Of a stretch of DNA of 64,000 nt, positions 22,874 to 59,860 are shown piece after piece. The DNA comes from Leucoraja erinacea (Eukaryota). Both the position numbers and the translations under genes were made by a program. The stretch covers positions 13,454,001 to 13,518,000 of the forward strand of contig NC_073385.1 of the NCBI RefSeq assembly GCF_028641065.1. The letters are read 5' to 3'. The notes beneath the pieces were generated by a model. That model saw only the letters and a program-made list of their open reading frames with translations. It was not told the DNA's origin and did not search any database. Position 1 is the stretch's first letter. The number at the start of each line of letters is the position of its first letter.

Positions 22874-23084
22874 CGTCCCGCCTCGCCGCCGAGGAGGAGG
22901 AGATCACAACGGCGCCGCCACGACCCGGACACAAACCCACGCTCATCACCGCCTTCGGGGGAAAACAAACCCCACTCGTGGTGTTTTTTAAAGTGTTATT
23001 TTGCCGGGGGTGTGTGTGTGTGTGTGTTTGTTTGATCGCCGTGGCCCTGGGTCGGAGGTGGGAGGTCATCGTCACAGAGACGGC
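22874..23084. promoter_or_regulatory. Bidirectional CpG-island promoter shared by ALKBH1 and SLIRP
   Basis: Divergent ATGs are separated by only 211 bp. CpG-rich from ~22680 to ~23230; (TG)n tract at ~23010-23027. Confidence 0.85.
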
Positions 23085-23166
23085 ATGATGGCGGCGACAG
23101 CGGCGGCTTCTTCGAGGAAAGTCTTCGAGATCTTCGTCTCTCGCGTCCCCTGGACTCTGGCCAGCA
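23085..23166 (+). CDS. SLIRP: SLIRP exon 1 (coding part)
   Basis: [27 protein letters not shown]; donor A|gtgagt. Confidence 0.92.
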
Positions 23167-31683: not shown

Positions 31684-31885
31684 CTATTCCTTTCTTCGCT
31701 TCTTTCCTTCATGTTCATATTCTTTTGAACGACCACTTTCAGGCCTCTTTGAGCCACCGTGTTGCTTGGCTTCCTCCAAGAACTTATCCAGCCCAAAGGG
31801 ATCTTCTTCGTCCCTCTCAAACTGAACAGGGCCGTCACGGCGCTGCTTACGGTCTGTACCAGAAAATTCTCTGTCGGGGACAAAC
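31684..31885 (-). CDS. SNW1: SNW1 exon 14 (coding part)
   Basis: [44 protein letters not shown]...GKKRRKE*. Confidence 0.95.
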
Positions 31886-34800
31886 CTGAGAAAAAACACA
31901 ACATTTCATTGCTATCATGTGGAGCAAAAAAAAACAACTAATTTTACATAAGTGGTTCAGCCAGTGTCAGCGAATGGAATTCAAGAAATGAAGATTTTTA
32001 TTAAACCTATTTACTGAAGCTACTTTTGCAACTACCATCATTTACAGGTGTGCAGGAAAGAACTGCAGATACTGGTTTAAATCGAAGGTGGACACAAAAT
32101 GCGGGAGTCACTCAGCGGGACAGGCAGCATCTCTGATCTTCAGAAGACTGAAGAAGGGTCTCGACCCGAAACGTCACCCATTCCATCTCTCCAGAGATGC
32201 TGCCTGTCCCGCTGAGTTACTCCAGCATTTTGTGTCTATCTACCATCATTTACATCCATTCTGCAAAATGGAAGAGATATATACATGTTATATGTTTACA
32301 AATGTTTTAGAAAATGTTTCACTGTCACAACCTTAATTGTCCTTGATGCCCATTTCCAAAATAGCAGCGACTTGTATTCAAGGCAATCTATAACAGCACT
32401 AGTCCCGAGATTCTCACAAAAAAGATACGTTTATGAGCTAGAAAAATGCCTGGTTAGAGCTGATTCTAATGGAGAAGAAGTGACCCAAATGTTAACTCTC
32501 TCTCTCTCCATGGATGGTATCTGACTTGTTTTTTGTTAAAGGGAGAATTCCAGGTCTTAATGGCAAGGTAGCTACTGCAGGTAGACATTCAAAGCTGAAT
32601 GACTGAGAATTAGAGGAACACAGATATCGCAAAGAGTTGAAGATGATTCACAGGTGGCCTTGTTTTGGATGATTTTGAGTTTAGTGAGTAGAACAAGGGA
32701 GTATGTCACAACACACATGAAAAGTAGCAGGGAAAATAAAACTAGGTTAACTCACCGGTTATTTTTCATAAATGTTTCCAATTCATCGTCATAAGTGTCT
32801 TTATCAGCGTTCTTGGTAGGTCTGTATACATTTTGTGCCAAGTCTTTGCCAGCCCTCCAAGGCTGGTCATAAACATTGTAAAGTTCATCCTCTCCTCCTG
32901 CAAAGCCACTGTCCATGCCCTGCCATTATAAAAACATAATTCAGGTGAGCTTTGATTACTACTCACCAGTGGTTTATTCATAAAAGATTTAGGAATGAGG
33001 TAGACTATTGCGTAATTCACAGTTCTACCATTCCTTTATAATGATCACACTGTGTTACCTTGTTCTGGTTGAAGAGTCTTTGGTCATACTGCAGTTCAGT
33101 TGATACACGTTACTGAGTTCAGTTGGTTTGGTACACCCAATGCAATCAGCTCGCTGATATCTCGTTCCTGGTCCTTCTGCACTTTGGACCTGGTATTCAA
33201 GCAAGTTTAATTACTTATACTTTGAATTCATATGCCACCATCAAACCTGTGCAAAAGCCCATGTTGTAGGGCACAGTCTACTTAAACATCTTTAATTGTT
33301 CACACTTCAAAGTTGCTTCTTAGTTGGAAAGAACTTCAGAACGTACCGAAGATGTATAGAAATGTAGAATTGTTACACAGTAGGAGGAAATCATTTGGCT
33401 CAAGTATCCGGCAAATACTTAGGAGGACTAGGGAGAACAAGTTTAATTTTCCTTAACACCTGACAGCTTTACAAGTTGCTGACTCATGCACCTCTCCTCG
33501 TCTCCACAAGCATTGTGTGGTGATTACTTCCACCAGATGCTATTATAGACAGAGCCTGCCACAGGTAAGCTGGCGAAGCCAAGGTTGAATGGATTTATCC
33601 CTCAACTCTCTGTTGGCCACAGACCAAATTTGGCAGATATATCCTACAGGCATTATAGGCATTCATAGCCACTCTTGTTGCCATTAAAAAAATGAGGAAT
33701 GTACCAAGAGCACCAAATGTACCCTGGCTGGAAGACTTTCAAAAGTGTTGTTCAATATGGAGGAGCACAGAACGATACATCAACTGAGGAAGAACAGTAG
33801 ACGATCAGATCAGGCAAGTATGACAAATTTAGTCTGGAGTAAAGGTTTTTATGACAATCCGGTGGATTTGAAGTCATTAACAATAATCAGACATTTCACA
33901 GTTGCATTGGCGATGTTTTTTCTCAGACTTTGGATTACTTGATCAACTTTGTGCCACCACCATGAAAGGTAATTCAAAGTTTTAAAAAAGTGATGAGTTC
34001 CAGGCCACAAGTCAAAGGGATATTGAGGAGAGGACTTTTACATGCCACTCTATAAATTCCAAAGACGTACAGGGTTGTAGGCCAATTTGCTTGGTGTAAT
34101 TGTAAATTGTCCCCAGTGTGTGTAGGATAATGTAAGTGCGAGGATCGCTGGTCGGCGCGGACTCGGTGAGCCGAAGAGCCTGTTTCTGCGCTGTATATCT
34201 AAACTAAACAATAGTGACTAACTCACAGGTTCTGACTTTTCTCACAGGTTATTAATGTGACAAACCTCTTATCTGGAGCTGCACGGGCAAGATTGCGATC
34301 ATGTTGTCGATCTTTCCGTCTTTCATGTCTAATTTCATCCCGTTCCCTTGTTTCATTTTCATCTGTGGAGATAAAAAAACGCATTATACGATTTCTAAAT
34401 CATAAAAGTATTGTTAAACTGTCTGTAAACACTGAAGAACAGTATTTTACATTGAATAACATGACTTCAGACACAGTTTAATTCCCCTTCCCATTCCAAC
34501 ACTGACCTTTCAGCAAATTGGAGGAACAACACTTCATATTTCGCTTGGGCAACTTACACCACAGTGGCATGAACATTGCCTTCTCTAACCAAGTTGCCTT
34601 TGCTTTCCCTCTCACTCCATCCCCTCCCCTTTCCCAGTTCTCCCACCAGTCTTACTGTCTCCAACTACATTTTATCTCTGTACAACCCAGTCCTGACCAG
34701 TCTGAAGAAGGGTCTCGACCCGAAACATCACCCATTCCTTCTCTCCAGAGATGCTGAGGCCTGCTGAGTTACTCCAGCAATTTGTGTCTCACTTCACATA

Positions 34801-37800
34801 GTTATTCTGTCAACATTGTAGTACTAATTAACGTTCAAAGTAAAATAATGAAAAAAGGCCTGCATTTGTTGCATTAAGTTTTTTTAATTTGTAACTTCCT
34901 TAAGGAAATGTACGTTTAAAAAATAACGTGCCACCAAGCATTTTCCTAATAGCAACATCACTGTTGCAGTGTAACGTGAATTCAGTCAGTCACCTACACA
35001 CAACCTAATCACAGCTGCGACAGTGGGGTCCACAGCCAGAGGTCATATGTTCATAAGTTCGAGGAGCAGAATTAGGTCAGTTGGCCCATCAAGTTAATTA
35101 AGGGACAGAAGTTTAGGGGTAATATGAGGGGGAACTTCTTTACTCAGAGAGTGGTAGCGGTGTGGAATGAGCTTCCAGTGGAAGTGGTGGAGGCAGGTTC
35201 ATTGGTATCATTTAAAAATAAACTGGATAGGCATATGGATGAGAAGGGAATGGAGGGTTATGGTATGAGTGCAGGCAGGTGGGACTAAGGGGAAAAAACA
35301 TTTGTTCGGCACGGACTTGTAGGGCCGAGATGGCCTGTTTCCGTGCTGTAATTGTTATATGGTTAAGTCTACTCCACCATTCAGTCAAGGCTGAGCTTTA
35401 TTTCCCTTCCAATCCCATTCTCCTGCCTTCTCCCCATAACCCAACACTCATACTAAGCAAGAATATCCGCCCTAAAAATATCTATTGGCCTCCAGTTTTC
35501 TATGGTAATAAATTCCACAGATTCACCACCCTCTGACAAAAGAAATTCCTCCTCATCTCCTTTCTAAAGGTACGTCCTTTTATTCTGAGGCCGTGACCTC
35601 TGGTCCGAGACTCGCCCACTAGTGGAAATATCCTCTCCACATCCACTCTATCCCGATCTTTCACCATTCGGTTAGTTTGAATGAGGCCCCTAATCATCCT
35701 TCTAAACGCCAGCGAGTACAGGCCCAGTGCTGTCAAACGCTCATCATATGTTAACTAATCATTCCTGGGATCATTCTCGTAAACCTCTGGATCCTTCCTC
35801 AGATAGTTTTCGTGAGTGGAGCCAAAAGAGGTGATAATAAATGCAATCCCATTTCCTCACATCCTATTTACTGTTTTAGTAATTGCCTGGAGCAGTTTCC
35901 TCAATTTCTTTCCAAAGATGCAATTTGAAGAAAATCTCTGCATCGAATTGCCTGAGAACCCAAAAAGCTTCCAAAATAAAGTCAGACTCATACTTTTGAA
36001 AATATTTAAATTAATTGAATGTGGTAACCATCCGTTTTTACAAAACATTAAAAAAATTGTTATGTGGCGGTGCTTCTGGCTTTGGTATGTTTAACGATGA
36101 GTGGAGCCAGGGAGTTAAAAGGGATTTAAACACAAGCCACTTTATTTGAAAATAACTCGATGTGTCAAGTGCTGAGATTTGAGTGGTGCAATGCGAGTGG
36201 GAAGGGAGTGGAGAAACGGGGTCCCGATCAGCAGGAAGGGAGCACACAATCCATTATCTGGTAAACCATCAGGGCTTCCAAATGGTTGGATTATTGGAGA
36301 TTTACCTTACATAAGATGTCCTTGCAAGTCCCTCCTACCTTTTTCTATGTGAGTCTTGATGCCAGCTCTTCTTTCCCTGGCAATCTGAGCCAATTCTCGA
36401 AGTTTCTCTTCCTTCTTTTCTTTCTCTTTTTGAGCCATTTTCCTTTCAACTTGTGCTCGCATCTCGACGGCTTCACGGGCCTAAGTACACAGCACAGGTT
36501 AATGAAGTAGGATTGTCTTATTGGAGTTGAACGTCCAAAAAAAGCAAATGGAGAAATAAAAAAAACTATGCTGCATTTTGCAACTTTACAAATAAAAGTT
36601 TAGGACGATACCTTTCTGTCTGCAATATAAAGAGCCTCTGCAAGTTTAGCAAAGTTTTCATTGATGTGAACTGTTTGAAGTCCCCGCCCATCGGCAGCCA
36701 GGCGCTTGTCCAATGGAATGGTGTAACCCTGGAATACAGAACACAATCACACTATAAAGAGCAGCAAGCTAGGGACATTTGCAAGCCAAAGTCATGGGCA
36801 ATGCAAAGCCTTAAACAACAAAACAAAATGCAGATAATTAATTCAGGAATCTTCATTTAACTCACTGATTACATACAGAGGGCAGCTGATTCATGACCTC
36901 AGACCTACTTTGTTGATTCTGTTAATCAGATCAAGATCTATTAAGAACTAAAGTTGCTGAAGCTTCATCTGCAAGTCTACATCTTCTTGACTATTGATTT
37001 CAACAAATTACAATCAATTAGGGAATTATCAGGTGTCAAGTTTTTTTTAAACTCAGCAGCCAGGAAAAACAATGAAAGCATAGTACACGTGTAATTAAAA
37101 AAGTTATGGTGAAAACATTTATTGCAATTCTCAATTTTCTTTATATGCGCCTGAAGATGAAGTATCAGCAAATTCAGGAACATTGATCCGGTGCTATTTG
37201 AATGTAATGCTAAGAACATTCTCCCCAGGGCCATATTCAGTTAAGAAATGAATTCAATTTACACTGAGATTTTAACAGATCACTCCCACTTCCAATGAAT
37301 TTCTTCATGTAAGAAGATAGGCTAAGGTTCGGATTTCCACTGCCAGAGCTGGAGCTTCACATCCTGCCACTTGATACACCTTATCCAACTATGCACTGAT
37401 CACACGCCTTGTGCACATGCCTGGATGGTTGGCTGAGGTCAGGCTAAACTTGAGACAACGGTCAGGGACACAAACGGATATGGATCAATTCAGACGCGAG
37501 TCAAGGAGGGAAATTGAGAAGAGGTTGTGACCTCCATCGAGTGTCACACTCTCCTGTTCCCTTTGTGTTGCAGTTGAAGTATCTTGGGCTCTTTAAACTA
37601 CTACATTTTTTCAAACGACAATGCCACTATCCCATACTATTATCCAACCAATAAAACAAAAACAATCACCAGACTGACTATTAAAAAAAAAAAAAAAAAA
37701 AAATTTATTCAAGTTTTTACAATACTAAATAATTCAAAACAAAATCCACCACCATAGTACAGGTAAAACAAATATTCTTAAATAATATTTTTCCATCCTT

Positions 37801-40800
37801 ATTAAGGATGCATTCCAGCCCCTGAGGTGCCCAGCGGTCCCGGAAACCCACCAGGGTTCCCGTGGACAGCGCGTAGTCCATCTTTAATACCACCTGGGCG
37901 TGGACGTAACCCTGGAAAAAGGGCAAGACTTTGACTCTTGGTGTGCTCAGACCAGGTATTTGCCACCATCGTGTCTGTATGATCCCGTCTCAAGCAACTT
38001 CCGCTTGTTGCATGAAAGATAACCCAAGTACAATCTACAACTTCCATTGTGTGATCAGTGCCTAATTGGCTTATTGGATTTTTTTAAGTTGATTTCCCCA
38101 TTTTAATGCCTTGACTGTGCATCTCTGCAAGCATTGTCCTGTTAAGATTGAAAAAAACCCAACAAATCCACAAAAACACCATGGTTCCCAGTATTGCAAT
38201 CCCAGTATTTCCGGTGTTGTACTTCCGGTGGCGCTGGTGCCAGCAGCCTCCACCTACAGCCCGGTATCTTTTTGTTTTTTTGTTTATTTAGTTATGTAAA
38301 AGTGTGTTTTTTTGTGTTTTTTTTGTGTTTTTATGTGGGGGAAGAGGGCACGGTGCGGGGGATACCGTCCTTCAGCCGCTTCCTGGTGAGGACGCGACTA
38401 TTATTCGAGTCACATCCTCGCCCCCTCCCCCCACAGCGGCCTACCTACCTGGATTGGCGCGGCCTTTCCTGCCGGGATCGACCGGAGCTCCAGCAGCGGC
38501 GGGACAGCGCTGAAACATCGCGGGACTGGCGATGCCTTACCGGGGGTCGCCGTCTGGAGCCCGGAGTGCTGGACCTGCTGCACCGACATCCTGGAGCTGC
38601 GGTTTGCGGAGCTCCCAACGCGGGCGGCGCTGATGGACAGCGCGGGGTCCTGCGACTCTGCCCGGCTCGGCCTGTGGACTCAGGAGCTGCAGACTCCGGC
38701 AGCGGGAGGCGGCTGATCAGGAGGTCCGGGCCGCTGAGGAGGAGGATGCTCACCGTCGGGGTTCGGCGTCGGCGTTCCACCAGCCCAGCGTGAGGGCCTG
38801 AACATCGGGCCACCCGGGGCGGCAACTGCGGGTGTTCGGAAGGCCCCGACCACGGATGAACACGGAGGGGAGGCTGGCTGGACTATGGTGCCTTCCTCAC
38901 CTTGGTGCCATTTATGTTATGTTGTGTCGTGGACTTTCTGTGTTTGTGCTTTTTTAAAATTCAATTTCAATTTTATTTTTAATATGTTTTATTATTTATT
39001 TATTTATTGGTGATTTTTTTATGATACTGCCTGTAAGGGAAATTCATTTCGTTGTCTCAAATTGAGACAATGACAATAAATTTGAATACAATACAATAAA
39101 TGCAATACAAATATGACAATTGACTCTTGACAATTGGCAAATATGACAATTGACTAGATTGCGAATTAAAGATTTGTCTCACTCCAGTCATTCCTTTTCC
39201 TCACTCTGACCGGGCAGAAGGTATAGAGGTTTAAAGGCATACAGCACCAGGCTCACAAACAGCTTCTCCTCCATTAACTGGTGTTGAATGGTCCTTCCAC
39301 AAGCTAAGGTACAATCCTGATTGTACTCCACTCCATTGCAGACATTAAACTTTGTCTCTGGAAATAATGCACTACAATGCTGAGAGATAATAATCTGCAA
39401 TCCATATCCTTCCCTTCACTTTACCTATTGTACTTGAGTTTGGCTTGATTGTACTTATGTAGAATATCATCTGATTTGATTAGCCAGCATGCAAAACAAA
39501 GCTTTTCACTGTACTTTGTGGCACCTCAATAATAAACCTCAACCTATTTTTAAAATAATTCTATTTTGAGAAGACCCCAACAACAAAATCGCTGTCTCCT
39601 TACCTTGGCGTTCTTCCAATTTGAGATGCATGGAGGAATTTTCCACTCTTGCTGTTCTTTTACCGTCATCTGAAATGGAAAAAAAAATAACAAAGGTTCT
39701 ATTAGAAGAATCAAACAAACTCAAACAAAGACACCCCTCAACGTGGCCAAGTTTAAAACTAATGCAGAAACAAAATGCTGGAGTAAATCAGCGGGTCAGA
39801 ATCAAGCAGCATCTCTGAAGAATGTGGTTAGATGACGTTTCAAATTCTGGAGTACCTCAATGGTCACTTAAAACAAATATACCATTGCAGCAATCTTACA
39901 GTTCATTGATTATTTATATTTAAGAAATTGTATACGAATATAGGTGGCATATTTATAAGTTTGTCATTGACACTAAAATTGGTGGTATGATAAGACAGTG
40001 AAGGCTATCCAAGATTGCAAAGGGATTTTGATTAACTGGGCCAATGGGCCGAAGAATGGCAGATGCAAGTTTAATTCAGAAAAGTGCAAAGTGAGGCAAT
40101 TTGGTAGGACAAACCAGGGAAGAACTGGGGAGTGTTGTAGGACATAGACCAAGGCATGTTGGTCTATACTTCCAAGAATGTGGTGGTACAGATAGACTGG
40201 CCGTGGGGGTGAAGGTGCTTGGTACATTTGCCTTCGTTGATCAGAGTACTGAGCACATGAATTTGGATGTCATGTTACAGATGTACAAGATGCTGGTAAG
40301 GTCACATTTGGAGTAGTGTGCAGAGTCTGTTTGCCCTGCCACAGGAAGGATAAACTGAAAATGTGCAGAGGAGATTTATAATGATGCTACTGGGTGTGGA
40401 AGGTTTGATGTATAAGGAGAGGCTGGGTCTTTTTTCCCTGGAGCATAGGAGGCTGAGTTGTGATCTTACAAAATAATGAGGGGAACAGATAAGGTTAATG
40501 ACCACAGTATTTTCCTCAGGGTAGGGAAGTCTGAAACCAGAAGGCATAACATTGGATTGAGGGGGAAGGGCAGGGGGTGGGGGGGTGGTTTCGAGGGGAA
40601 GATTGTAAAAAGGGCAGCTCTTCACACTGGTGCATATATACAGAATGACTTCCATAGGAAGTATCAGAGGTGAGTAAAATTATAACATTTAAATTTGGGG
40701 ATACGTAGACAAGGTTTGGAGGAATATGGGACAGGCACAGATGAGTGGGACTAGCTCGGTTAGGCAATAATGCCAGCAAGAACAAGTTTGCCCAAAGGGC

Positions 40801-43800
40801 TTGTTACCGCATTGTGTGGCTCTACAACTTTCATTCTCCAAGGTGTCTGCACTGCTCGAATTCTTGCCCTGTGATCATCCCCAAATTTAATCTGTCTTCC
40901 AATGATGATCATGTCTTCAGTTCCAAAATCTAAGACTCTAGGAATATTTCTGTTTATCTTTTATCCTATTAAATCGCCGCCTAATCTCTCTCCCTCGGAT
41001 ATCTTCACTAATAGTTATTTGGCATAGTACCAATTTCTTTGTTTGATAATAATGCTGTGAACTATTTTGGATCATTTTTGTGTGTGACACTCCAAAAAAT
41101 TAAAAGTGATTAGTATTACATTGTATTCCTGGCGACAGCGGTTTGTAAAAAAAACCCATCCAAACCAGTCACTTTGTTCGTGCTTCCTGACCCACTGAGT
41201 TCCTTCCACAGTTCTCCATTTTTATTGAATTGAATCCTTTATTTGTCATTCAGACCTATTGCTCCAGATTCTAGCAATCTCTCGAGCCTCCACTTGGTTC
41301 TTTTTTATGGTACTCGCACAATACTATCAAGTGAACTGTTATACGCAATGTGTACTTGTGAATGGCAGGCCAGATAGTCTGGCCAGATCCGACTGACAAT
41401 AAACAGGCAGAAAGTCAAGATACTGCAATGGAGTATAGTTTTAAAGAAACTCAGCGGGTGCAGCAGCATCTATGGGGCGAAGGAAATAGGCAACGTTTCG
41501 GGCCGAAACCCTTCTTCAGAAGGGTTTCGGCCCAAAACGTGGCCTATTTCCTTCGCTCCATAGATGCTGCTGTACCCGCTGAGTTTCTCCAGCACTTTTG
41601 TCTACCTTCGATTTTCCAGCATCTCCAGTTCCTTCTTAAACACGGAGTATAGTTTTAATGTTTAGTTCAGAGATACAGCACAGAAACAAACCCTTTGGGC
41701 CACCAAGTCCATGCTGACCAGATTAACAGTTCGCACTGGTTCTATACCCACCTGACATCAGTGGTGGGGAAGATGCTGGAGTTAATTATCAAAAATGAAA
41801 TAGCGGCACATTTGGATAGCAGTAACAGGATCAGTCCAAGTCAGCATGGATTTACAAAGGGAGAATTTTTTGAGGATGTAACAAGTAAAATGGACAAGGG
41901 AAAGCCATTGGATGTAGCGTACCTGGACTTTCAGAAAGCCTTTGATAAGGTCCCACACAGGAGATTAGCGGACAAAATTAGAGCACATGGTATTAGGGGT
42001 AGGGAATTGACATGGGTAGAAAATTAGATGGCAGACAGGAAACAAAGAGTAGGGACTAACGGGCCCCTTTCAGAATGGCAGGTAGTGTCTAGTGGGGTGC
42101 CGCAAGGCTCGGTGCTGGAACCGCAGCTATTTACAATATACATTAATGATTTAGACGAAGAAATTAAAACTAACATTAGCAAATTTGCAAATGACACAAA
42201 GCTGAGTAGAAGTGTGAACTGCAAAGAGGATGCTATGAGGATGCAGGGTGATTTGGAAAGGTTAGGTGAGTGGGCAGATGCAGTATAATGTGGATAAATG
42301 TGAGGTTATCCACTTTGGTGGCAAGAATGGGAAGGCAGATTATTATCTAAATGGTATAGGAAAGAACTGCAGATGCTGGTTTAAATCGAAGGTAGACACA
42401 AAATGCTGGAGTAACACAGCGGGCAGGCAGCATCTGTGGAGAGAAGGAATGGGTGAAGTTTCGGATCAAGACCCTTCTTCAGACTGATGTCAGTGGAGGG
42501 GGCAGGACAAAGATAGAATGTAGTCGGAGACAGTAAGACTAGTGAGAGAATTGGGAAGGGGATGGAGAGAGAAAGCAAGGGCTATCTGAAGTTAGAGAAG
42601 TCAATGTTCATATCCCTGGGGTGTTATCTGAATGGTGTCAGGTTAGGAAAAGGGGAAGTACAACGGGACCTGGGTGTCCTTGTGCATCAGACACTGAAAG
42701 TAAGCATGCAGGTACAACAGGCAGTGAAGAAAGGTATGGCATGTTGGCCTTCATAACGAGAGGAGTTGAGTATGGGAGTTGTACAGGGCCCTGATGAGAC
42801 CATGCCTGGAGTATTGTGTGCAGTTTTGGTCTCCTGATTTGAGGAAGGACATTCTTGCTATTGAGGGAGTAGGTTCACAATGTTAATTCCCGGGATGGCG
42901 GGACTGTCATATGACGAAGGAATGGAGCGACTGGGCTTGTATTCACTGGAATTTAGAAGGATGAGAGTGGATCTAATAGAAACATATAAAATTATTAAGG
43001 GATTTTACACACTAGATGCAGGAAACAAGTTCCTGATTGTGGGGGAGTCCAGAACCAGGGGCCACAGTTTAAGAATAAGGGGTAATTTAGAACTAAGATG
43101 AGGAAAAGCTTTTTCACACAGTTGTGAATTTGTGGAATCTCTGCCTTGGAAGGGAGTGGAGGCTGATTCATTGGATGCATTCTAAACAGAGTTAGATAGA
43201 GCTCTTCAGGCTAGAGGAATCGAGAGGATATGGTGAGAAGGCAGGAACGGGGTATTGATTGTGGATGATCAGCCATGGTCACATTGAATGGCGGTGCTGG
43301 ATCGAAGGGCCGAATGGCCTACTCCTGCACTGTTTGTCTATGTATCTATATATAATCCCACTTTTTCATCCATTCACTACACTTGAGGGGTAATTTACAG
43401 TCAACTTACAAACCCACACACCTTTGGGGCGTGGGAGGAAACCGGAGCATCTGGAAGAAACTCATGCTGTCACAGGGAGAAGGTGCAGACTCCACATTGA
43501 CAGGACTCGGGTCTCTGGTGCTATAAGGCAGCATCTGAGAAAGACTGGTAGCAAAAGCATGCTCTTAAAAAAATTAAACTGAAGATCAATTGTAGGCAGG
43601 GAAATTGTCAGGGGTTCAATTTGGCTTCAGCACCAACTCCCTCGTATACATGGCAATCCGTGTTCTGCATGATATTCTGCAGTGTTTTTGTAGGGGAAGC
43701 AAGTTGGGAATGTGTGATTCTCTCAGTGATGGATGTCACACTGAACTTTACTAGACAGCAGACTGCCTGATAAAATAATGTTTCTTTAAAATAGCAATGC

Positions 43801-46800
43801 CACGTTTCACTTTGCAGCAGAGTCATTATACCATACTCAATTTCACCAGTGAAATCTACAGGAGAGGACGAGCTGTCAGTGATAGTTAATGCTGCTCTTC
43901 ATCGCTCTGTTCTCTGCCATGCTTCACCCTGACACCAAACAATAGCACGTTTTAATCCAGCAGCAGTAATTGACTTCGAAATGCACCAACGCCACGATTC
44001 TGCTGTGGGGATTTAATTTATCTCTGCTGGAAATATGGAAGGCTACGAAGTTATGAGTTATCAGCTCATCAAAAAACAAAAAGCATTAAAAACAAAGGGT
44101 TTGTGCAACTGTCTTATTACAGATTTCAAATGCAGCTTTTATGCGGAAGTTAAAAAATAAAATCTGCTGTAAAATATTGGTGAGCACCGTTCCCTTGCAT
44201 TAGCTGATCACGCTCCTACCTTTCTGCTAGGCGAATGCATGACAGGTGCAGGAGGTGATGGGGGACCTCGGGGAATCTTCTTATTAATCCTAAACACAAA
44301 AGAGACACTCAGATTAGGTCATAATGAGCTCCTCAAGAAGAAATTGTAGAATCATGTCATTTTTACCCGATCCACACTCCATCCACGGTACTGCATTGGA
44401 ACATTGTCATTAATGGAACACATTAATGGAACATTAATTGCAAAAGTTTCCAATTAATGGAAACCAATTTCACAATTTAAAGAAACATACTTTAGACCCA
44501 GAAAACGACCAGGTTTCTGAGTACAATCAGCATTTGCGTTGGAACTCCTGAATGTTGTAAATAGATTCAGATTACACAACTATACGAAATGAAGTTAACT
44601 TGTGCTTCTTTTGAAACAGCAATACTGATATGAAAAGTCGCATAAAAATAAAATACATAAAAGGCCTCCATGCTATTCACTTACTTGAATCGTGGTGGTT
44701 CCATGGGGTCCTTTTGCATTTCCACCATCCTGATAACTCTCTGCTTAGCTCCCGAGTTGAAAGCAACACCTTGTTGAGAAGGAGTATACCTGCATTGAAG
44801 AATAAATTTAGTTTGCTGACCATGGCACAAACACACTACTTGTCCTCAATTCTTCAAAATTATACTGAATTTAAGGAAATGTAGTATCTGAACTGATCTT
44901 GGCATCAGATGAATCACAAGTTGTGATCAGCAACCATTGAATTTCTTTCTCCCATTCAATTATCCCCATCTATGGATCTAGATGCTGCTTACTGTATCAT
45001 CAACTTGCCTCTTCACCCCCCCTGAAGTGTCAAAATACGTTTGAAATTCAGTATTAGACAGAAATCCTTCCAGCTAACCGACTAATCCACCCCACGACCA
45101 CTTATTGACTTATTTATCCATTTCTATTGACTTAGGTTGAGCTACATTTTAATTTTACAATAATTATTTGTGTTAATTTTGTTAATTCAATTTCCATACC
45201 AATTCCATCTATCCACCTGGCAAGCTGAAATTGAACCAAGTTGTCCTCCAGCTAAAGTTTCCGACCATCGAGGTGCCCACTGCTCAGTAGCATTATTTTA
45301 CTTCAGAGCAGTTGACTATGAAAATCGCATCCATACATTTGTTTCCTTATAAAGTAAGAACAAATAAGCAGAAAATTGGTCATTTGGTCCCTAGCACCTG
45401 CTCTTCTTTTCATTAAGCTCCTGGCTGACCTTTTACTTCAGTGCTACCTTCTTGTATTAATCCCATAATATCTAATTGTATATCTATTGGTTATAGTGAG
45501 CGAGTCTCCACAGCTTTGCTGCAAGAAGAGCCCCAAGGATTCACTAACCTTTGGTGAAGAAACATTTTCTCATCTCTGAACCATTCCAGTTGCAATGGAG
45601 TTTATTTTATGTAAAAATATTAAGGGACATGCAGAAAATGAGTATAGCTCACCCTTGAGCCAATTCAATGGAGATGGGCTCAAATAATCTAATAAACCGT
45701 TCCTATTATTAAATGTCCTATTTTTAGACTATTCAGCTTGTTAAAACAAGTTATTGACAGAGTGAGAATCAGCTAACCCTCCACTTCACCCAAAGCTGGA
45801 CTGTGTAGAAAACTTTATGCAAACAAGAAAGACCAACATTTTCTAAAACAGGTCATAGTCCTATATCCAAGTGAAATCCCATCACATCTGAGTACTCAGT
45901 TACTCTTCTAACCTGATGTACTGTGCAGGGGCTAGCTTCTCAGCTGCTCGAACAGGCATGGCTGCTGCAACCTTCTGTGAGACTTGTTTCTCCAGAGCTG
46001 AACGCGTCTTTTCAGTCAACTGCAATGAAACAGGAGTTATTTTAGCAAGTTAACATGCATTACCTATGGACTGCCTATGGACAACGTATCTAACAACTAC
46101 CTGATCTTAATTTTCAAGGATTAACAGGCTGTCTTACCCAAGGCAAAGTCAACTGTCAAATTGTGTTAGTTTTTAAACTGAGGTGTTAGAAACAACATGT
46201 CACACAACATATGGAGTTGCTTATTACCAGAGCTAGGGTGTAATCATATCCTCGATTAAGGAGGTTTTCTTCTGACTCTACTAACATTTCCACAGACAAC
46301 GCATATGCTATTTATTGCGCACAGGATTAGCAATAATGCTGAAGAATGTTTTATGTTTTAACATCCCCCCTGTGTAAAAAAACATCAGATGAGATTGGTT
46401 GAGTTTATTTATGTAAAAATATTAAGGGACAAAAAAAAAAAACGAGGTATAGATCACCATTGATCCAATTCAATGGAGAATAACTGTTCCAGTTACTTTA
46501 CAGTCTTCCAACACCAACTACCAATCAGCCATATGTGTGAATATCAATGGGCTATTTAACAGCAAGGGGCTAAACAAAACCTGCATCATTTCACAGCAGG
46601 AATCAATGGATGGTGAACTGGAACGCAGATATTCAGAGTGGTTTGTATCTCTTGCAATATTGTAACCAATTATAACAGACTGATGATATGCTGAACAAGC
46701 TTAAACAAATTAATACTGATTGGAGACTGAGTTTGCAACTTTAATATCTCAAAAAACACAACATATGTATATTTACCGATGGAGCCTTCAAAAAGCTCCA

Positions 46801-49800
46801 GAACAAATCAAATATTCATTCTGCAATATTCTAACTTGCTCATCTTTTTTTCTGCCGTCTCCTTAAATCAATCAGCCCGGACCTAACCTCTCACATAGCA
46901 CGCCTACACAATGTGTCGCAACACCTTCAATTTAATACAAGACACGGTCTTTTTTTGTGATTAAAGTATGGAGGATTTGTAATGCTGAAACAGCTACGAG
47001 CACTCAATTTATTTTGAAGGATGGACACTTAATATTCCGTGAACAGAATAGCATAGCTTTTGTGCAGCAAAACCCTCCGAGATATTGTGCAGGAGTACAT
47101 AATTCACCTCACACGCAGAACCAGAACTAATGCACATTGAATAAGAAAGGAACCTTCATTTATTTAGCTATTTGAAGTCTTTTGGCTCGAAGCCACTATG
47201 AAATCGTCTTTATTATGCCTGCACTGACATATCTGGCTAGCAATATCAGCCTTTCCAAATGCCAGAATACGTGTAAAATCGCCTCAAAATTATTTTTGTG
47301 TAAAAACAGATGCAAATGTTAGAGAAGCAGCATGGAAGCAGCCACTTTAACCCACAATGTCCACGCCAAATCACCAGTTCACACTAGTTCCGTGTTATCC
47401 TATTTTCTAAACACTTGGGGCAATTTGCAGAGGCCAATTAACTTACCCTCACACGTCTTTGAGACGTGGGGGATGACCAGAGCAGCTGGAGGAAACCTAC
47501 GTGGTCACAAGGGGAACGTGCAAACTCCACCCGGATAGCGCCCGAGGTTGGAAAGGTTGATATTGTTAGCCAGATATGTTAAAAACATCTGTCAATGCGG
47601 TCATAATAACGAAGATTTCATAATGGCTTTGAACCAAAAGACTTCAAATAGCTAAATAAACAACGTTTTTTTCCCCACTTATTCAATGTGCATTTGTTCT
47701 GGTTTTACTTACGAGGTGAATCCTACATGGTCACAAGGGGAACATGCAAACTCCACGCGGATGGCGCCCGAGGTCAGGATCGAATCTGAGTCTCTGGAGC
47801 TGTGAGGCTTTAACTATGAGCTGTGCCAGTTAACTATTATTTTGAAACAAGGCAGAAAATGTGTATACTATCTTGCCCACCCAGAGAAATTAGTTAATCC
47901 ATTTGATGAACTCAACCGACAAATACATAATTCCATTCCCTCATAGAAAGAACCAAGATTTGTTTAAAGAGCGCGGCCTGTGGACCAGATTTCTCTCTCC
48001 TCCACAAATCTATTGCCACCTTGTATGCAGAAAAAGTCTGCTGGCAAAATGCTTTTGGGAACAGCACAGGCAATTTACCAGTGCCCTATTGCAAACTGGT
48101 AGATGGTATGCAAATTCCAATATTTTCAAACTGTATTAAATAATAGAAATGTTTAGTCCAATTGACTGCCCTTTCCAAATATCTAAAATGACTCCTCAAA
48201 TGTCCATCTTATTCAATAATGGTATCCCTCAAAACAGAAACACTCTCAATGTCATACAGACAGGGTTAAAAGTAACTCACCTCCTTTATACTGTCTTCAT
48301 CCGGCCTCTGCAGCTCTGGATCATCTTCATTTATAACTTCTTTGGGAATGAGATCTGTAAACTTGCTGTATACAACCTGCACAAGCAGAAACAAAATTGA
48401 AATTGAAACATTGTTAAAATTAAATTTGCAAACCCCAAATCTGTATTACCCTCATACCTGCAGGTAGAATCCATGGCTTAAACTCTACAATAAACTGTTG
48501 GACATGAGCATTCACCCAGCCATGTGCCATTGGATTCTGCACTTTCTGACAGACAGCAAAGAGTCAAGGTGGGTGAAAAACTCTCCAGCCCTCTGACTCT
48601 CAATACAGGAGCCCCTCAAGGGTGCGTTCTGTCACCTCAGCTCTTTTCACTTTACACCAACAACCTCGCATCCCAATGCAGCTCAGTCAAAATTTTTAAA
48701 TATGCAGACGACACAAAAATAATTGGCCTCATCTCAGACAACAACGAATCACAATACCATCAATCAGTGGACAACGCAGTCAAATGGTACGCAGACAACA
48801 ACCTCCAGCTTAATACTTCAAAAACCTTAGAAATCATCATAGATTTCAGACGCAAACAAAACCCCAAACCCTCGGTCCATGTCAACTCCCATCCCATAAC
48901 CTCCACGAACTCATTTAAGTTTCTGGGCACCTATATCTGCAATAATCTAAAATGGCACATCAACGCAGACTACATCATCAAGAAAGGACAACAACGCCTA
49001 TACTTCCTCAGACAACGCCTATACTTCCTCAAAAAGTTCAGAGTCCACAAACACCTCCTGGTCCGTTTTTTATCAATCCATCATTGAAAGCATCATCACC
49101 TCCTCAATCACAGTCTGGTACAGAAACACTGACAGTCACTCACTACACAGATTACAGCACATTGTCTCCAAGGCCTCCAGGATCATCAACTCCCCCCTCC
49201 CCTCAATCCATTCCATTTACCTCCAACGTACCTCAAAACGGGCAATAAAGATCATCTCGGACCCTTCCCATCCAGCAAACCACCTTTTCCAGTCTCTCCC
49301 TTCAGGGAGGCGCCTCAGGTCACTTGCTACAAAAACCACCTGCTTTAAAAACAGTTTCTTCCCCTCAGCGATAAGAACACTCAATACCCTCCAATAACAG
49401 TCAATATTAAGGACTTTTGATGTATACAGTGTCTTGTCTATGGTCATTGTCTGTTCTTTTGCACTATGTATTGTTGGTGAGATTTGTGATTTGTGATGTG
49501 GTATGGATGCACTTTATTACTGTGATCTGTGTTGTTATTAGTGTTAATGTGACTAAAGCAGTGTACCATCATGTACCGAACCTAAATACCACCAACCCTG
49601 GTCGTGTGGCAAATAAAGATTCTATCTATCTATTTACCAACTACCCTAAAATTTGAAGAAATTACATTTGGCCAGAGTAGGAATCAATTTAGTTTAGCTC
49701 ATTGTTACGTGTACCGAGGTACAGTGAAAAGGTTTTTGTTGCGTGCTATCCAGTCAGCAGAAAGACTAAATATGATAATAATCAAGCTGTTCACAGTGAC

Positions 49801-52800
49801 AGATACAGGGGAAAGGGAATGTTTAGTGCAAAATAAAGTTCAGTAAAGTCCTATTCAAGATAGTCTGCGTGTCTCCAATGAGGTAGATGGGGGCGCTGCG
49901 AGCCGGCAGCCCTGCCAGCTACGTGTTCATTTTTTCTACTTTTTTTGTTTTTTTTGTGTTTCATCAGCCACGGGCGCAGCGAGGACTCTTTCGTCGTGGA
50001 GCGGGCGAGCCCTCGTTGGGGACCCCAGAGGAGAGGAGCTCTGACCGCCGGCCCCGTAGTCTGTGGTGTTTCTGACTGCGGCGCAGGTGGGGACTTTAGA
50101 TCTTCGACCGCCAGCTTGCGGCCTACACCATCTTGAAGCCGCAGTCCCCGGTGGGGTGGCACCGATTCAGGGCTTACCTGGACATACCTTGTCTGCACAT
50201 CTGGACGCCCACAGCGTCGGCTGCGGAAGGTTGTGGTCCCGACCACGGGGGAAAATGGAGGAGGACTGACCAAATTTTGTGCCTCCACCACAGTGATGAA
50301 TGCTGTGGTGGATGTTTGTGTTAATTTTTTATTGTGTATTTTGTGTTCTTTTTTATTGTACCGCTGCTGGCAAATTCATTGCAAGTGACGAATAAAACTT
50401 GACTTGACGGTAGCTTAGAACCGCTGTCTTGTTGTTGGTAGGATGGTTCAGCTTCCTGATGACACTGGGGCCTCTGAATCTGGAGGTGTGTGTTTTCACA
50501 CTTTAGTACCTCTTGCCAGATGGGAAAGTTGAGAAGAGGGAGTGACCGAGGTAAGATTCATCCCTGATTAGGTGGGTGGCATTCTACACACTGCCATTGT
50601 GTTGTTGGACATGGGTCATAGGACAACATAGTAAGTCAGTGGATGAGAATCTGATGGGCATTAGCGTACCTTGTCCTTCGACTGTCCTTGCCGAGCAATA
50701 GCATCAAATTTGATCTTTCCCTCCGAGTCCACCTGAACCGCCAGGGCATTGGATGCTTTTTTCTTGCGGCCCATTTCCAGTGGAAACTGGGCCATGTGGA
50801 CCTCTGGGAATGCACCTCCATCGCCAAAATCCTGGAGAGGAAAACAGACAAAATCATTACTATCACGAGTTACAGAATCAAAGGTTACAATTCATTCACT
50901 GAAATAACCAGCAGGTCTGGCCTCGTGGTGCATTGAAGAAGAAACAAAGCATTTCAGATTGCTAACTTTTTGTCTGAACCTTAAACATTAAACCATTTCT
51001 CTCTCCACACTCATCTGCTCAGTATTTCCATCGTGTTTTTATTTCAGATTTTCAACATCTGCAGTATTTTCCTTTTGGACCACATTCAGAATCTCTGCAA
51101 GCTCCAAGCCAAATTAATACTTCCAATTTCATATAGATTGTATTTTGGCCCAGAAACAAAAAAAATATTGATTTTTGTAAAACATTATAGCAGCACACAT
51201 AAAGGAGGTTAAATAACGCATTTCTTGTCAGATTCGCGTAGCTATGCATCGTGTTCAAGTTCTCAAATGCTTCAAGACAGTAAACTGCTATACATTTTAA
51301 AGCACTGTTTTAAAACAGAGCACTTTGTTTAGATATTTCCTCTTTTGTAGCCTATGTACATCACTTTCCTGATCCTTTTTGCACTGACTGACAGATTGGC
51401 TCTATAATTTGTTAAGAGAATAAAGAGATTGAGCCTGCAGAAAATCTTTACAAGAATGATCTCATGAATGAGTAGGTTAACCTATGATGAGCGTTTGTTG
51501 GCACTGGGCCTGTACTCGCTGGAGTTTACAAGAATGAATGGGGGCCTCATTGAAACAAACAGAATAGTGAAAGGCTTGGATAGAACGGATGTGGAGAGGA
51601 TGTTTCCACGAGTGGGAGAGTCTAGGGCTAGAGGTCATAGACTGAAAGGACGTTATTTTAGGAAGGAGATGACGAGGAATTTCGTTCGTCAGAGGGTGGT
51701 GAGTCTGTGGAATTCTTTGCCACAGAAGGCTGTGGAGGCCGTCAGTGGATATTTTTAAGGCAGAGATAGATTCTTGATAAGTACGGGTGTCAAAGGTTAT
51801 GGGGAGAAGGCAGAAGAATGGGGTTAGAGAGGGAGAGATAGATCAGCCATGATTGAATGGTGGAGTAGATTTGATGGGCCGAATGGTCTAATTCTATTCC
51901 TATTCCTTATGACCTTGAATGTGGCCATGCAGAGAACAATATGTATGTACTATTTTCAATTGTTTAAGAAAATATTTTAAAAAGTTGATCACAACTAGAA
52001 ACAGGGAAATCAGCAATACTTAAATGTTATTTGGTATTGACAGTGGGCAAGATGTTAGCAGATAGAATCCAGAGGACAGAATTGTGAAGTAGAAGGTAGA
52101 ATGGCAAACTAAATTTAAATGTAATGATACCACAAAATATTTAAAAAATAATGCACAAAACAGAGAGCAGGTATAACAACAAGTAATTAGGAAGGTTAAC
52201 AGACTATTATGTTTTCATTGCAAGAGGTATGGAACACAACTGCAAGCAATTTTTGATCTCCATATTTATATCGGAGTCAGTGCAAAGGCGGTTTAATAGG
52301 TTGGTTTATGTTCGCTTTATGTTATAAAAGAGAAATCGAGCAGGTTGAAGTTTCCTCTCAGACTTCTTTTCAGTTTTCAGTATTTTGTTAAATGTCATCA
52401 ACACTAACGCAATGCATACCAACAGCTAACCTCAAAAATGTGAATGGGAGGTGTGTCTATTAAACATTTGCTGTAACGGCAAACATGCCAATCCCTCTGA
52501 TTTCATTTCACTCTTGTGAAGAGCTGTGGCGCAGAATCTGAACAGCTTGAAATTAATTGAGACAATTTGCAATCAATAATGCTAAAGGTACCGATGTCAA
52601 TAGAAATGACTGTCATATCACAGATGTATGACTTGACAATGTTAATTACTGCAGCTAAATATTTAGTTGATGTACATGGCGTGGGTCAATTTTGTGAAAC
52701 GCAGGCAATTTGTTCACGACAAGGCTGCGGACGTTACCTCCAAGGAGCGCGGAACCCATCCCTTTCGGTGCCCATAGGGCGGAGGCTCTCTGCGTGATGC

Positions 52801-55800
52801 CACCAATGCTGTTTGCCTCGCCCGCTGAGCACGGGTCTTTTCTTCAGCTTCCAGCTGGTCCTGCGATAGCTGCGTTGGCGCAGGAAGAAAACTTTAAAAA
52901 TAAAAATAAAAATAAATGTTACTCCTTCTGATACACAGGAGCAAGGTAAAGACATCCCGACTTCTCCACTGTGGAACCACAACTGGAACCGAAGCACAGC
53001 GGTAAAAGCACGATCTGCCTGACCTGGTTACTTTCGTTCAGAGAACATCAGCCTTTTCATATCACATTGTGAACCAAGGACAAGGTCCAGCTGAATAACA
53101 GCTGGTGTGGGGCCATAAACTCCATGCCACGGGTACTGGATGCATAAAATCACTACACGTAAAATCTAAGCAAATTATACCTGGAACAGTTCCATTCTTG
53201 TGAATTCTTGTATTGTACGTGCTATTCAGTGATTTTTATATTTTTCGGCGAACTCTTTTTAATTAGGGATCTCGTGAAAGATTGTCTTTTCAATACAAGG
53301 TATGACTGTGGAGACTGTCCACACCTTTGGTGAGCACTTTATTTTGTAACCTATCCCTGACATACTTTGCCGCAGAACAAATATGTGAGAAACTTTTGAT
53401 CTGTGATCTGCCATATAAAAAGCTAAAGAACTCAAGAACTCATGGCATTGGGGGAAGCTTTAATGTGAATTGAAGAGCGGTCTTTAAATTGAAGATAGAG
53501 GAGTCCTTTACAGAATGGGACAATGTAACCCAGCAATTGATTCCTATCTCTATTATCTACTTACAGGAACCAGAGAGTAAAGCATCCAAGTTTGTTGATA
53601 ACATGAGAAAAGGTGGGATGTAAAGCTTTGATCAGGACGTATGGACTCTGCCACAGGATAGGTTGAGTGAGTGGGTGAAAACTTGGCAAAAAGGATTTAA
53701 TGCAGGAAAGTGATGCTTTTTAAAAAATATTTTATTTATTAGAAGTGAGTATAATGCATTGGTACAAAAACGATGTTAACATATTACATTCTCTGTACAA
53801 CTTCCCCCTTTTTTTTTAAAGAGAGAAGTGAGAAAGGAGAGAAGAAAAAGAGGTTGTGAAAAGTGAAGAATAGATTAGTGAGCGTGGGTGAAAAACCAAT
53901 AAAGAAAAAGTGAAAGAGAAGGAATAAGTGAAGAAGGAAAGCAGGAAGGAGATTATTCCATTGCCACAGTGAGATGATTTTTTAAAACATATATTAAATC
54001 ATCTTTCACCCATACCTGAAACTGTTGGTTTTCATGATACTATGTCACCACATGAATCCAAGAAATCAATAAATGGGGACCAACTCCTTAAGAATAGGTC
54101 TTGTTTGTCTATTAGGAGGAGTCTCATTTCTTCCAAATGTGCTGTGTCCAGCATATTACTGATCCACATTTTAAATGTTGGTATATTAGCATTTTTCCAA
54201 AATGTAAGTATAAGTTTTTTTGCTGTTATTAACCCATAATTAAAAAATGAGCTTTGGTGTGTATTTAATTTGTTCCCATCTCCACTTACTCCAAATATAA
54301 TCATTTCAGTGTTAGGTTCCATTTTTGTCTTAAATAGCTTTGAGAGTGAGGCGTTGGTAGAAGCAAACAGAAAGGAGACTATTAGAGTTATAGACCAAAC
54401 AACATGGAAGCAGGCCATTCAGCCCAATTCACCCGTGCTGGCCAAGTTGCTTAGCCTAACCTAGACCTTAGCCTGGCCCACATTCCAGGAAGGCTTTCCT
54501 ATTCATGTACCCAAGAGCTTTTAGTATTGTATTTTCCTTTGGAAGTTTTTTCACAGAGGGTACGTACCGTGGTCTGCGTGAAAATGTTGCATTGAACAAC
54601 ATTTAGAAGACATTTGGACAGTTACATGGATACGAAAGGTTAGAGTGCGATGGGTCAAAGGGATAATGTTAGGTGGAGCAGAAACAAAATGCTGGAGCAA
54701 CTCGGCGGGACAGGCAGCATCTCTCAAGAGAAGGAACGGGTGACGTTTCGGATCGAGACCCTTCTTCAGTCTGAATATTGACCCAATATTGTGTCTACCT
54801 TCGATTTAAACCAGCATCTGCAGTTCTTTCCTGCACATTAGATGGAGCATCTTGGTTGACACGGATGAGTTGGCCTCAAGGGCATTTCCGTGCTCTGTTA
54901 CTATGATAATGTACAAACATACAAATGTGGAGCATGAGTAGGCCCCTGGGCCCCTGGAGCCCACTCTCCATTTAATACAATCCTGACCGACCTGACTGTA
55001 ATCACAACTGCAGTCATCCTTTATCCATTAAATAGATCTCTTATTTTATCTACCAGCAATTGATCAATTGAAAGATGTAGCTTGGAAATGGGCCCTTCAG
55101 CCCACCGAATCCACATGGACCATTGGTCACCGATTAAAACTTGTTCCACGTTATCCCACTTTCGTATCGTAGAAACATAGAAAATAGGTGCAGGAGGAGG
55201 CCATTTGGCCCTTCGAGCCAGCACCGCCATTCATTGTGATCATGGTTGATCGTCCCCAATCAATAACCCGTGCCTCCCTTCTCCCAATATCCCTTGACTC
55301 CACTAGCCCCTAGAGCTCTATCTAACTCTCTCTTAAATCCATTCAGTGACTTGGCCTCCACTGCCCTCTGTGGCAACGAATTCCATAAATTCACAACTCT
55401 GGGTGAAAAAGTTTTTCTCACCTCAGTCTTAAATGACCTCCCCTTTATTCTAAGACTGTGGCCCCCTGGTTCTGGATTCGCCCAACATTGGGAACATTTT
55501 TCCTGCATCTAGCTTGTCCAGTCCTTTTATAATTTTATATGTTTCTATAAGACTCCCCCTCATCCTTCTAAACTCCAGTGAATACAAGCCTAGTCTTTTC
55601 AATCTTTCCACATATGACAGTCCTGCCATCCCAGGGAGCAATCTCGTGAACCTACGCTGCATTGCCTCAATCACAAGGATGTCCTTCCTCAAATTAGGAG
55701 CAAAACTGTACACAATATCCACTCCGGAAAGTTAGGGGAGAAATTTACAGAGGCCAATTAACAGCAAACGTGCACATCTTTAGGATGTGGGAAGAAACCG

Positions 55801-58800
55801 GAGAAAACCAATGCAGTCACAGGATGAACGTGCGAACTCTGCAAAAGGTCAAGATTGAACACGGGTCTCTGGCATGGCGTTGCAGCAGCTCTACCAGTTG
55901 AAGAAAGGCAAAATACTGGTATAATTCAGTGGGTCATGCTGCAACCCTGTTGAACGTGGATAGGTGATGTTTTGGGTCAGGACCCTTCTTCAGAGCCCAA
56001 CCTAAAAGGAGGAGCCCGACCTAAAATGTCACCTATCCATGTTCTCCAGGGATGCTGACCGACCTGCTAAATTACTCCAGCATTTTGTGTCTTTCTTTGG
56101 TAAACCAGCATGAGCAGTTCCTTGCTTCTCCAATTCTACCAGCTGTGCCACCATGCCACTGTTTGGCGTTCTTAACAAAGACAATGTTTTGATAATCAAC
56201 ACAGAACATAGAATCGTACAGCAAAATAACAGGCTCCTCGGCCCACAATATATGTGGCGAACATGATGCCAAGAACATCTCTATTCTACCTGCGAATAAT
56301 CCGTATGCCTTCATTTTCATATGCCTATCCAAAAGCCTCTTAAATATCATAGTATCCACCTCAACGACCAACCCTGGCAGCACATTAGACACTCGCCACC
56401 CTCTGTGAGAAAAAGTTGCCATGCACATCTCCTTTAAACTTTGCCCATCACTACCCCTAGTATTTGATTGTTCTATCCTGGGAACAAGGTTCTGGCCGCC
56501 TTAACATACTTAACCATAGTTTCAGAACTGCTGTAGCAGGTGTTTGAGAGGAAAAGCACATGATCAAAAAGATGCTATAAAAGATTTTGTACAAAGAACA
56601 TTGGTTGAAGTGCTCAAGGGTTGCCAATGGTACAATGTAGCAATGAATCACATTGGTCGTGATATTTCTGCGAATGTAAGTATGAATGTACAATAACCTA
56701 AATTCTATATAGTTGATGGGAAAGTGGGAGAATAAAACAGCTTGTAGGCTGGGAGTAAAATGGTCTTAATGGTCATATTTATGACATTGTTGTTTTGAAT
56801 TAATACTAATAAAAGTTAATGGAAAGGTTGAATAGATTCAGCGTAGGTTCACCCGGTTAATTCCCAGGATGGCGGGACTGACATATGATGAAAGAATCGG
56901 TCGACTGGGTTTGTATTCATTGGAATTTAGAAGGATGAGAGGAGATCTTATTGAAATATATAAAACTCTTGAAGGATTACAGGCGAGATGCAGGAAAAAT
57001 GTTCCCGATGTTGGGGGAGTCCAGAAACAGGGGTCACAGATTACAAATAAGGGGTAGGCCATTTAGGACTGAGATGAGGAAAAACTTTTTCGCCCAGAAA
57101 ATTGTGAATCTGTGGAATTTTCGGCCACAGAAGGCAGTGGATGCCAATTCACTAGATGTCTTCAAGAGAGAGTTAGATTTAGCTCTTAGGGCTAAAGGAA
57201 ACAAGGGATATGGGGAAAAAGCAGGAACAGGATACTGATTTTAGATGATCAGCCACAATCATATTGAATGGCCGTGCTGACTCAAAGGGCCGAATGGCCT
57301 ACTCCTGCACCTATTTTTCTATGTTAATAACCGGTCTCCAAGGTTGGGTTAAGAGCATTGACATCATCGGTACAACTGCATTAACATCCAAAATTTAAGT
57401 CAACACCATTATTGCTATAACCTAGAAGTGACTCCAAACGAAAATCTGTTAATCTAGTGGGTCCCTAATTTCTACAAGTCTAACATAAATCAACAAAAGC
57501 ACCATGAGGTAGAATAGCAAGAAAGAGTTATAAAGTTCGATGCAATGGTACATCAAAATTGTTGTGGTTCTAGTCAAGGTTCAAAGGAGGATTTTGATCG
57601 AGACCTATTTTACAGTACCTTCCTACGAAACTATTAGACAAATAATAATATGCATAAGGCTATATTTAATTTCACCAAAGTTGCAACTACCTGAAATGAT
57701 CAATTCAAATTACAGAATCCATGAATCATGCAACATAAATTGTGATTTGGCCCATTTGTGTCTTTGTCAAGAACTTGAAATTAGGTAACATCTGTACATT
57801 GGCGAGACCAAGCGCAGGCTCGGCGATCGTTTCGCCGAACACCTTCACTCAGTCCGTTTTAACCTACCTGATCTCCTGGTTGCTCAGCACTTTAATTCCC
57901 CCTCCCAATCCCAATCTGACCTTTTTGTCCTGGGCCTCCTCCATTGTCAGAGTGAGGCCCAGCACAAATTGGAAGAACAGCACCTCATATTTTGCTTGGG
58001 TAGTTTACACCCCAGCAGTATGAGCATTGACTTCTCTAACTTCAAATAGCCCTTGCTCTCCCTCCATCCCCTCCCCAGTTCTCCCACCAGTCTTACTGTC
58101 TCCGACTACATTCTATCTCTGTCCCGTTCACTCCCCTGACATCAGTCTGAATAAATGCCTCTTACCCTAGACGTCACCCATTCCTTCTCTCCAGAGATGC
58201 TGCCTGTCCCGCTGAGTTACTCCAGCATCTTGTGTCTACCTTTGAAATTAGGCCCCCTCTGCACTCACCAGGGTAATGCAATTTTTCCTCATTCCTCATT
58301 TAAAAAAAAAAGAATAACATTTCCTTTTTATTTATTTCCAATGTGTGCATCTTTTTGAGGTGTTGAGAGTTACCATGGCAGCAACTATGTGGTAACGCCA
58401 GATACTACACACCATCACAATTAGCCCATTACCAACAAACCTTAGTTTTTAAGGTCAATGAGATTAATCACATTTAGAATGTATCAAAACAGGATCCCAG
58501 AAAACAAAATTCAAGAAACTTGGACAACTATTAAAATAGCAAAAAATGCGTTCCCTGAGACCAATGAGATCAAGTGTATGAGGGGAATAGATCAGGCAGA
58601 CCCACTGTCTCTTGCCCAGAGTGGGCGAATCGAAAACCAGTGTGCATACGTTTAAGGTGAAGGGGGGGGAAAGATTCTAAAGGAACCCGAGGGGTAACCT
58701 TTTCACACAGGGTGGTGGGTGTATGGAACAAGGTGCCAGAAGAGGCAGTTGAGGCAGGGACTATCATAGTGTTTAAGAAACATTCAGACAGGTACATGGA

Positions 58801-59337: not shown

Positions 59338-59860
59338 TTTCTCTCAGTGTCGCTGCTGTCGCTGCCACTTTGCGTCTGACGTCACGCCGCAAGCGCGGCC
59401 ATCCCGCAGTCTGCTATCGGATCTTTGGCGCCAACCAACGGCCCTCGGCTGACGTCACGCCGCACGCAGTCTGCTATAGGATCTTTGGCGCCAACCAACG
59501 GCCCTCGGCTGACGGCGCCTTCGATGCCTCAAGCCGCCAGCGCAAAGCCTCATGGAAGTTGTAGTCCGCCACAACCTGATTCAATTTTTCACACACGAAG
59601 TAAAGAGTAGTTATTTTCCTTACAGAAATACTACCTTCTGCGAGGAGCATTTATTTCATGATGTCAACTTAAAAATTATATCTGTTCTTTAAAACGTATT
59701 TTAAAGCGTTGTAGTTTCTTTCTAACCGTTCCCTGCTTAAATACATGGGAGTGTTGGACCATGTGGACTACATCTCCCATAGATCTTTGCCCGACAGAGG
59801 CAGGTCACGGGTCAGAGCTCCCTGTGAGCCGGACGCTGAAATTGACAGTAGCTGGTAAGT
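59332..59860. promoter_or_regulatory. SNW1 promoter, probably bidirectional (CRE, E2F, YY1 and ZNF143/THAP11-type motifs)
   Basis: TGACGTCA at 59377 and 59450; TTTGGCGC at 59424 and 59484; CGCCATTTT (YY1-like) over the ATG; ACTACA-nn-TCC(C)A-type motifs at 59553-59565 (minus) and 59767-59779 (plus); CpG-rich. Confidence 0.8.
59780..59854 (+). other. Candidate non-coding first exon of a divergent gene (ADCK1 expected by vertebrate synteny)
   Basis: Strong donor CTG|GTAAGT at 59855, just downstream of a plus-strand ACTACATCTCCCA promoter motif. No coding exon is seen in the window, so the identity is inference only. Confidence 0.4.

Follow-up and report, generated by a model that had tools for sequence, protein, structure and literature searches.

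Thirteen extra nucleotides in exon 12 of the little skate SNW1 gene most likely represent an assembly consensus error

In the assembled genome of Leucoraja erinacea, exon 12 of SNW1 carries 13 extra nucleotides (33110..33122, minus strand) which break the reading frame of the gene. The window considered here is the whole stretch of 64,000 nucleotides that was analysed, and all positions refer to it. With a high degree of confidence, these 13 nt are attributed to an error made during consensus building or polishing; the SNW1 gene of the animal is likely intact. This reading is favoured because DNA and RNA-type contigs from all four of the sequencing runs compared are without the insert.

The SNW1 gene and its disrupted exon

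The SNW1 coding span (31684..59337, minus strand) comprises 14 exons, with GT-AG dinucleotides at all internal junctions. When the insert is left out, these exons form a single open frame encoding 537 aa. The last exon has as its top match the protein P0001, which is the RefSeq entry XP_055496154.1 and bears the Pfam domain PF02731 (SKIP/SNW domain). Between 2 and 56 differences separate the skate protein from named chondrichthyan SNW1 proteins, as would be expected of an SNW1/SKIP orthologue; the insert-free translation differs by two residues from that of Amblyraja radiata and by four from that of Rhinoraja longicauda. Unlike the assembled skate SNW1, these chondrichthyan orthologues have no additional residues at the site of the insert.

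Exon 12 (33059..33189, minus strand) is entered in phase 2 and measures 131 nt as assembled and 118 nt in spliced contigs. The initial annotation had described this exon as frameshifted by its extra length, with a TGA at 33098-33096, and as returning to frame once 33110-33122 are removed. The exon map bears out each of these points, the TGA (33096..33098, minus strand) falling at codon 408 as the first stop of the assembled frame. The exon 12/13 junction follows this stop after 37 nt, and the exon 13/14 junction after 201 nt. Nonsense-mediated decay follows a 50-55 nt rule, and decay of the assembled SNW1 mRNA is predicted because the stop precedes the last junction by 201 nt. The earlier expectation that decay is likely, given two introns downstream, therefore stands as a prediction, but it is carried by the last junction only. 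No further frame break occurs in the other 13 exons of SNW1, in agreement with the earlier view that they are intact. A decayed pseudogene was considered as well and is discarded, given a single lesion across 14 exons together with intact spliced contigs and an intact protein.

The insert is, as had been proposed, a near copy of adjacent sequence. The native exon tract that it copies (33087..33099, minus strand) sits 10 nt away and agrees with it in 12 of 13 columns, the copy being short of one base, and an exact 10-nt direct repeat is found at 33093-33102 and 33116-33125. Four placements of the insert are equivalent, from 33109-33121 to 33112-33124, and removal at any of them gives the same protein. 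The local match exceeds chance: an equally good match to the 40 nt on either side was obtained for 47 of 20,000 random 13-mers of the window and for 33 of 20,000 shuffles. Elsewhere in the 64-kb window, no second match to the insert was detected at up to two mismatches. The microhomology word CAAC, read from the sequence, occurs first at 33122..33125 (minus strand) and again at 33102-33099, which is 10 nt beyond the first in the insert-free allele. On the coding strand, the pattern is that of a forward jump between the two CAAC words, a 12-base copy minus one G, and a return.

Evidence from independent sequencing runs

Contigs from 4 of the 24 listed runs were aligned to 32260-34045 at 80% likeness and a 1% share. 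All four belong to the best-matching organism; X1 and X2 are DNA runs from one sample, while X15 and X20, from two further studies, are presumed to be of RNA type, none of the matching runs being on record as RNA. The 20 runs outside this comparison include those of related species and an RNA run with raw reads that stems from a different organism. A lack of the 13 nt in reads had been named beforehand as the observation that would refute the insert, and this is what was found at contig level: the 13 letters are omitted at 33109 in X1, X2, X15 and X20, and no insert-bearing record occurs among the contigs of these four runs.

The contigs of X15 and X20 cover exons 12 and 13 only within the aligned stretch, and the two exons are joined over a 139-nt GT-AG intron. 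This junction indicates that they are spliced transcripts with a normal 118-nt exon 12. Their ends continue into sequence which reads, on comparison by eye, as exons 11 and 14. Apart from the insert, they show one and two differences from the window, all of them silent. Both of the spliced RNA-type runs, as well as the Logan protein P0136, encode the conserved protein, an outcome for which decay of an insert-bearing transcript could also account.

Each of the DNA runs provides one contig across the whole 1,786-base stretch. Three other letters differ between X1 and the window, and nine between X2 and the window. X1 and X2 have opposite letters at 10 sites, including the polymorphic markers that flank the insert most closely (33040 and 33232); at these two markers X1 agrees with the window, whereas X2 shows the alternative letters. 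Since X1 differs at only three other letters, a haplotype near-identical to that of the window exists without the insert, and the insert is absent from both flanking haplotype forms in the DNA sample. As a separate observation, X1 and X2 both have T at 33855 where the window has C, a candidate for either a second consensus error or a polymorphism.

The reference protein model and its homologues

The RefSeq entry XP_055496154.1 is titled 'LOW QUALITY PROTEIN: SNW domain-containing protein 1 [Leucoraja erinacea]'. Such a label signals a corrected frameshift, and the model is already flagged by RefSeq. The protein equals the insert-free translation with four added residues, LNSV, at the site of the insert, which indicates that the same letters are present in the public reference. 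Judging from the lengths, the model appears to have been patched by dropping one base, the remaining 12 nt being read as LNSV.

The four residues are peculiar to this entry. Among 189 homologues, the spacing from the IALG-type motif to YDQR is 11 residues in 173 and 12 residues in three, another 12 have no motif match, and a spacing of 15 residues is found in P0001 only. The string QLNS likewise occurs in P0001 only, and the frameshifted tail occurs in none of the 189. A search with residues 364-403 of P0001 was restricted to cluster representatives, with listed lengths of 297-947 aa; among the 120 of 271 matches listed, no other representative contains the LNSV region in full. Insert-free proteins are also found in Logan contigs, which bear no species label and may include close relatives. 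P0136 is identical to the insert-free SNW1 at 537 of 537 residues and is found on 46 contigs, the longest of which has 3,317 nt; given a gene of 27 kb, these contigs must be spliced. P0137 (469 aa, no differences) and P0138 (504 aa, one difference, at the start) are without the insert as well.

Neighboring features

A gene on the plus strand, which we take to be SLIRP-like, has exons at 23085-23166, 25905-25963, 28330-28437 and from 31321 on. Its last coding exon (31321-31392, plus strand) is antisense to SNW1 and falls within the sequence that follows the stop codon of SNW1. Near 31310, the strand of SNW1 carries an AATAAA; because the last SLIRP-like exon adjoins it, the 3' ends of the two genes likely overlap. 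A further gene on the minus strand, presumably ALKBH1-like, starts head to head with the SLIRP-like gene, at a distance of about 210 nt (22873-23085). Its first two exons are in frame, and its first intron holds an assembly gap (a run of N at about 22324-22493) with CT-rich simple-repeat flanks. Just upstream of the SNW1 start, at about 59390-59515, a unit of about 60 nt occurs twice in tandem with few differences and with a TGACGTCA motif; either the promoter is truly duplicated or the consensus slipped here as well. At about 6900-9400 on the plus strand, inspection by eye suggests a LINE-like reverse-transcriptase stretch of 2.5 kb with apparent frame breaks.

Origin of the insert

Among the three options of the initial annotation, the evidence now favours an assembly error and refutes a fixed change with rescue by splicing, while a heterozygous allele is unlikely and unsupported. 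For the fixed change, either the 13 nt would be removed by splicing or a GT inside the insert (33108..33113, minus strand, TCA/gtaacg) would act as an in-frame donor. Use of the GT at 33113 would indeed leave an in-frame exon of 76 nt, for a protein of 523 aa that lacks YDQRLF, although by eye it departs from the donor consensus and none of the four runs uses it. A length of 13 nt is far below that of spliceosomal introns. When 20 AG acceptors and 19 GT/GC donors around exon 12 were screened, 15 pairs were open and in frame, and none of these 15 keeps YDQRLF; skipping exon 12, exons 12 and 13, or exons 11 and 12 leads to early stops. In the spliced contigs, exon 12 is joined at its usual acceptor and donor, and the genomic contigs X1 and X2 are without the insert bases, which refutes the fixed change and leaves it next to no probability. 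Almost as little is left for a true in-frame insertion of 12 nt (LNSV) accompanied by a one-base error, or for a second SNW1 copy or chimeric molecule that leaked into the consensus. The RefSeq model does retain the four extra residues, but all four runs omit 13 letters rather than one, and the in-frame insertion was rejected on this ground; the restriction of QLNS to P0001 among the 189 proteins also speaks against these readings. In addition, a single contig accounts for the DNA depth over the whole stretch, and none of the four runs gave another record resembling exon 12.

That the assembled animal had a private heterozygous SNW1 null allele, which arose through polymerase-theta-type end joining, is unlikely but deserves more consideration. 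The steps proposed are annealing at CAAC, aborted synthesis of about 12 nt minus one base, and re-annealing; the assembly would have taken the insert allele by chance and the insert-bearing mRNA would be degraded. Templated insertions (TINS) are described as insertions of 3-30 bp with a direct or inverse repeat of the flanks of at least 5 bp within about 30 bp, and the first round of synthesis is said to rarely exceed 10 bp (PMC7165422). The skate insert resembles them in size (13 nt), in its exact 10-nt direct repeat of a template 10 nt away and in priming at a short microhomology (CAAC at 33125-33122 and 33102-33099), with a local match beyond chance (47/20,000). It differs from that description in its copied tract of 12 nt, longer than a usual first round, and in being seen in none of the molecule sets of the four runs. 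Set against such an allele are also the two flanking haplotypes of the DNA sample, both of which are free of the insert, and the searches described above, in which neither another LNSV-region representative (120 of 271 matches listed) nor a frameshifted tail (189 proteins) was found. It has been reported that heterozygous loss of SNW1 causes human disease and that the gene is dosage-sensitive in humans and organoids, with an exon-12 frameshift among the causative variants (PMC12435841). A standing null allele is less likely for this reason. That human variant, c.1235_1236insA (F412Lfs17), is like the skate change in affecting the same exon, in its premature stop and in its predicted decay; nonetheless, it inserts a single base and has been verified in a patient (PMC12435841), whereas the skate change is seen in an assembly only. 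It may further be expected that consensus errors outnumber null alleles in any given essential gene. That the insert is a germline null allele from polymerase-theta-type repair, with its internal GT perhaps sparing part of the transcripts from decay, so that a product of 523 aa without YDQRLF is made, is regarded as unlikely. A biological templated insertion, as stated in the title of the initial annotation, is not shown by the data.

How strongly the contigs count against heterozygosity depends on how they were made. Logan contigs merge alleles into a single best-guess path (PMC12424806), and because of this collapse they cannot prove that the insert is absent. A heterozygous sample with the depth observed here was simulated, given that the two runs take opposite alleles at each flank, under two assumed collapse rules, one of them based on assembler behaviour. 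The insert was lost from both DNA runs with a probability of 0.10-0.36 for reads of 100-250 nt and of 0.003-0.11 for reads of 1-10 kb, so that collapse could hide an allele in both runs with a probability of up to 0.36. The DNA contigs are thus evidence of about 3- to 10-fold against heterozygosity in that sample, and more for long reads. The sample behind X1 and X2 may differ from the assembled animal, in which case the contigs would indicate only that the insert is not fixed. The RNA says little on heterozygosity, as decay would deplete a null allele.

An error in the consensus remains the favoured origin of the 13 nt. A published assembly of the little skate relied on noisy long reads, polished in two rounds with Racon and in one with short reads, at a heterozygosity of 1.56% (PMC10115646), and the match in species suggests that the window derives from it. 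When a consensus was derived from noisy long reads, the alignment may have jumped from one CAAC word to the other, 10 nt away, perhaps at a boundary between consensus windows. Such a slip would have written the 12 downstream bases once too often, lost one base and rejoined upstream, and short-read polishing would then have left the insert in place. In a human test, Racon polishing disrupted reading frames, through 10 edits, and switched haplotypes, with 7,268 alternate alleles incorporated (10.1101/2021.07.02.450803). The mix of X1 and X2 alleles in the window is compatible with a blended consensus. Like frameshift errors from polished noisy long reads, the lesion in the skate SNW1 is a single frameshift in a conserved and otherwise intact gene, does not appear in the independent contigs of either DNA or RNA, and has a patched protein model.

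Certain features of the insert argue against such an error. Racon errors are found mostly at homopolymers (10.1101/2021.07.02.450803), whereas the skate insert is a 13-nt near copy of neighbouring sequence. Its shape also fits polymerase-theta insertions well (PMC7165422). Furthermore, no frame break was detected in 19 other exons of the window (13 of SNW1, four SLIRP-like and two ALKBH1-like), which indicates that the region is not visibly error-rich and counts against a consensus error.

Implications

In searches with a coverage that mostly excludes subscription papers, no paper on SNW1 in Leucoraja was found, nor did one appear among the best matches of a broader search. The 13 letters stand in the assembly, but probably not in the animal. 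If they are an error, the public little-skate SNW1 model contains four spurious residues (LNSV), which could mislead phylogenies, selection scans and the design of guides or probes. Since an assembly error can mimic a polymerase-theta scar, such scars are not callable from an assembly alone. If the insert is real, it would be the heterozygous null allele of one animal, in a gene whose human counterpart is haploinsufficient, and would constitute a modest example of mutation load with no new mechanism.
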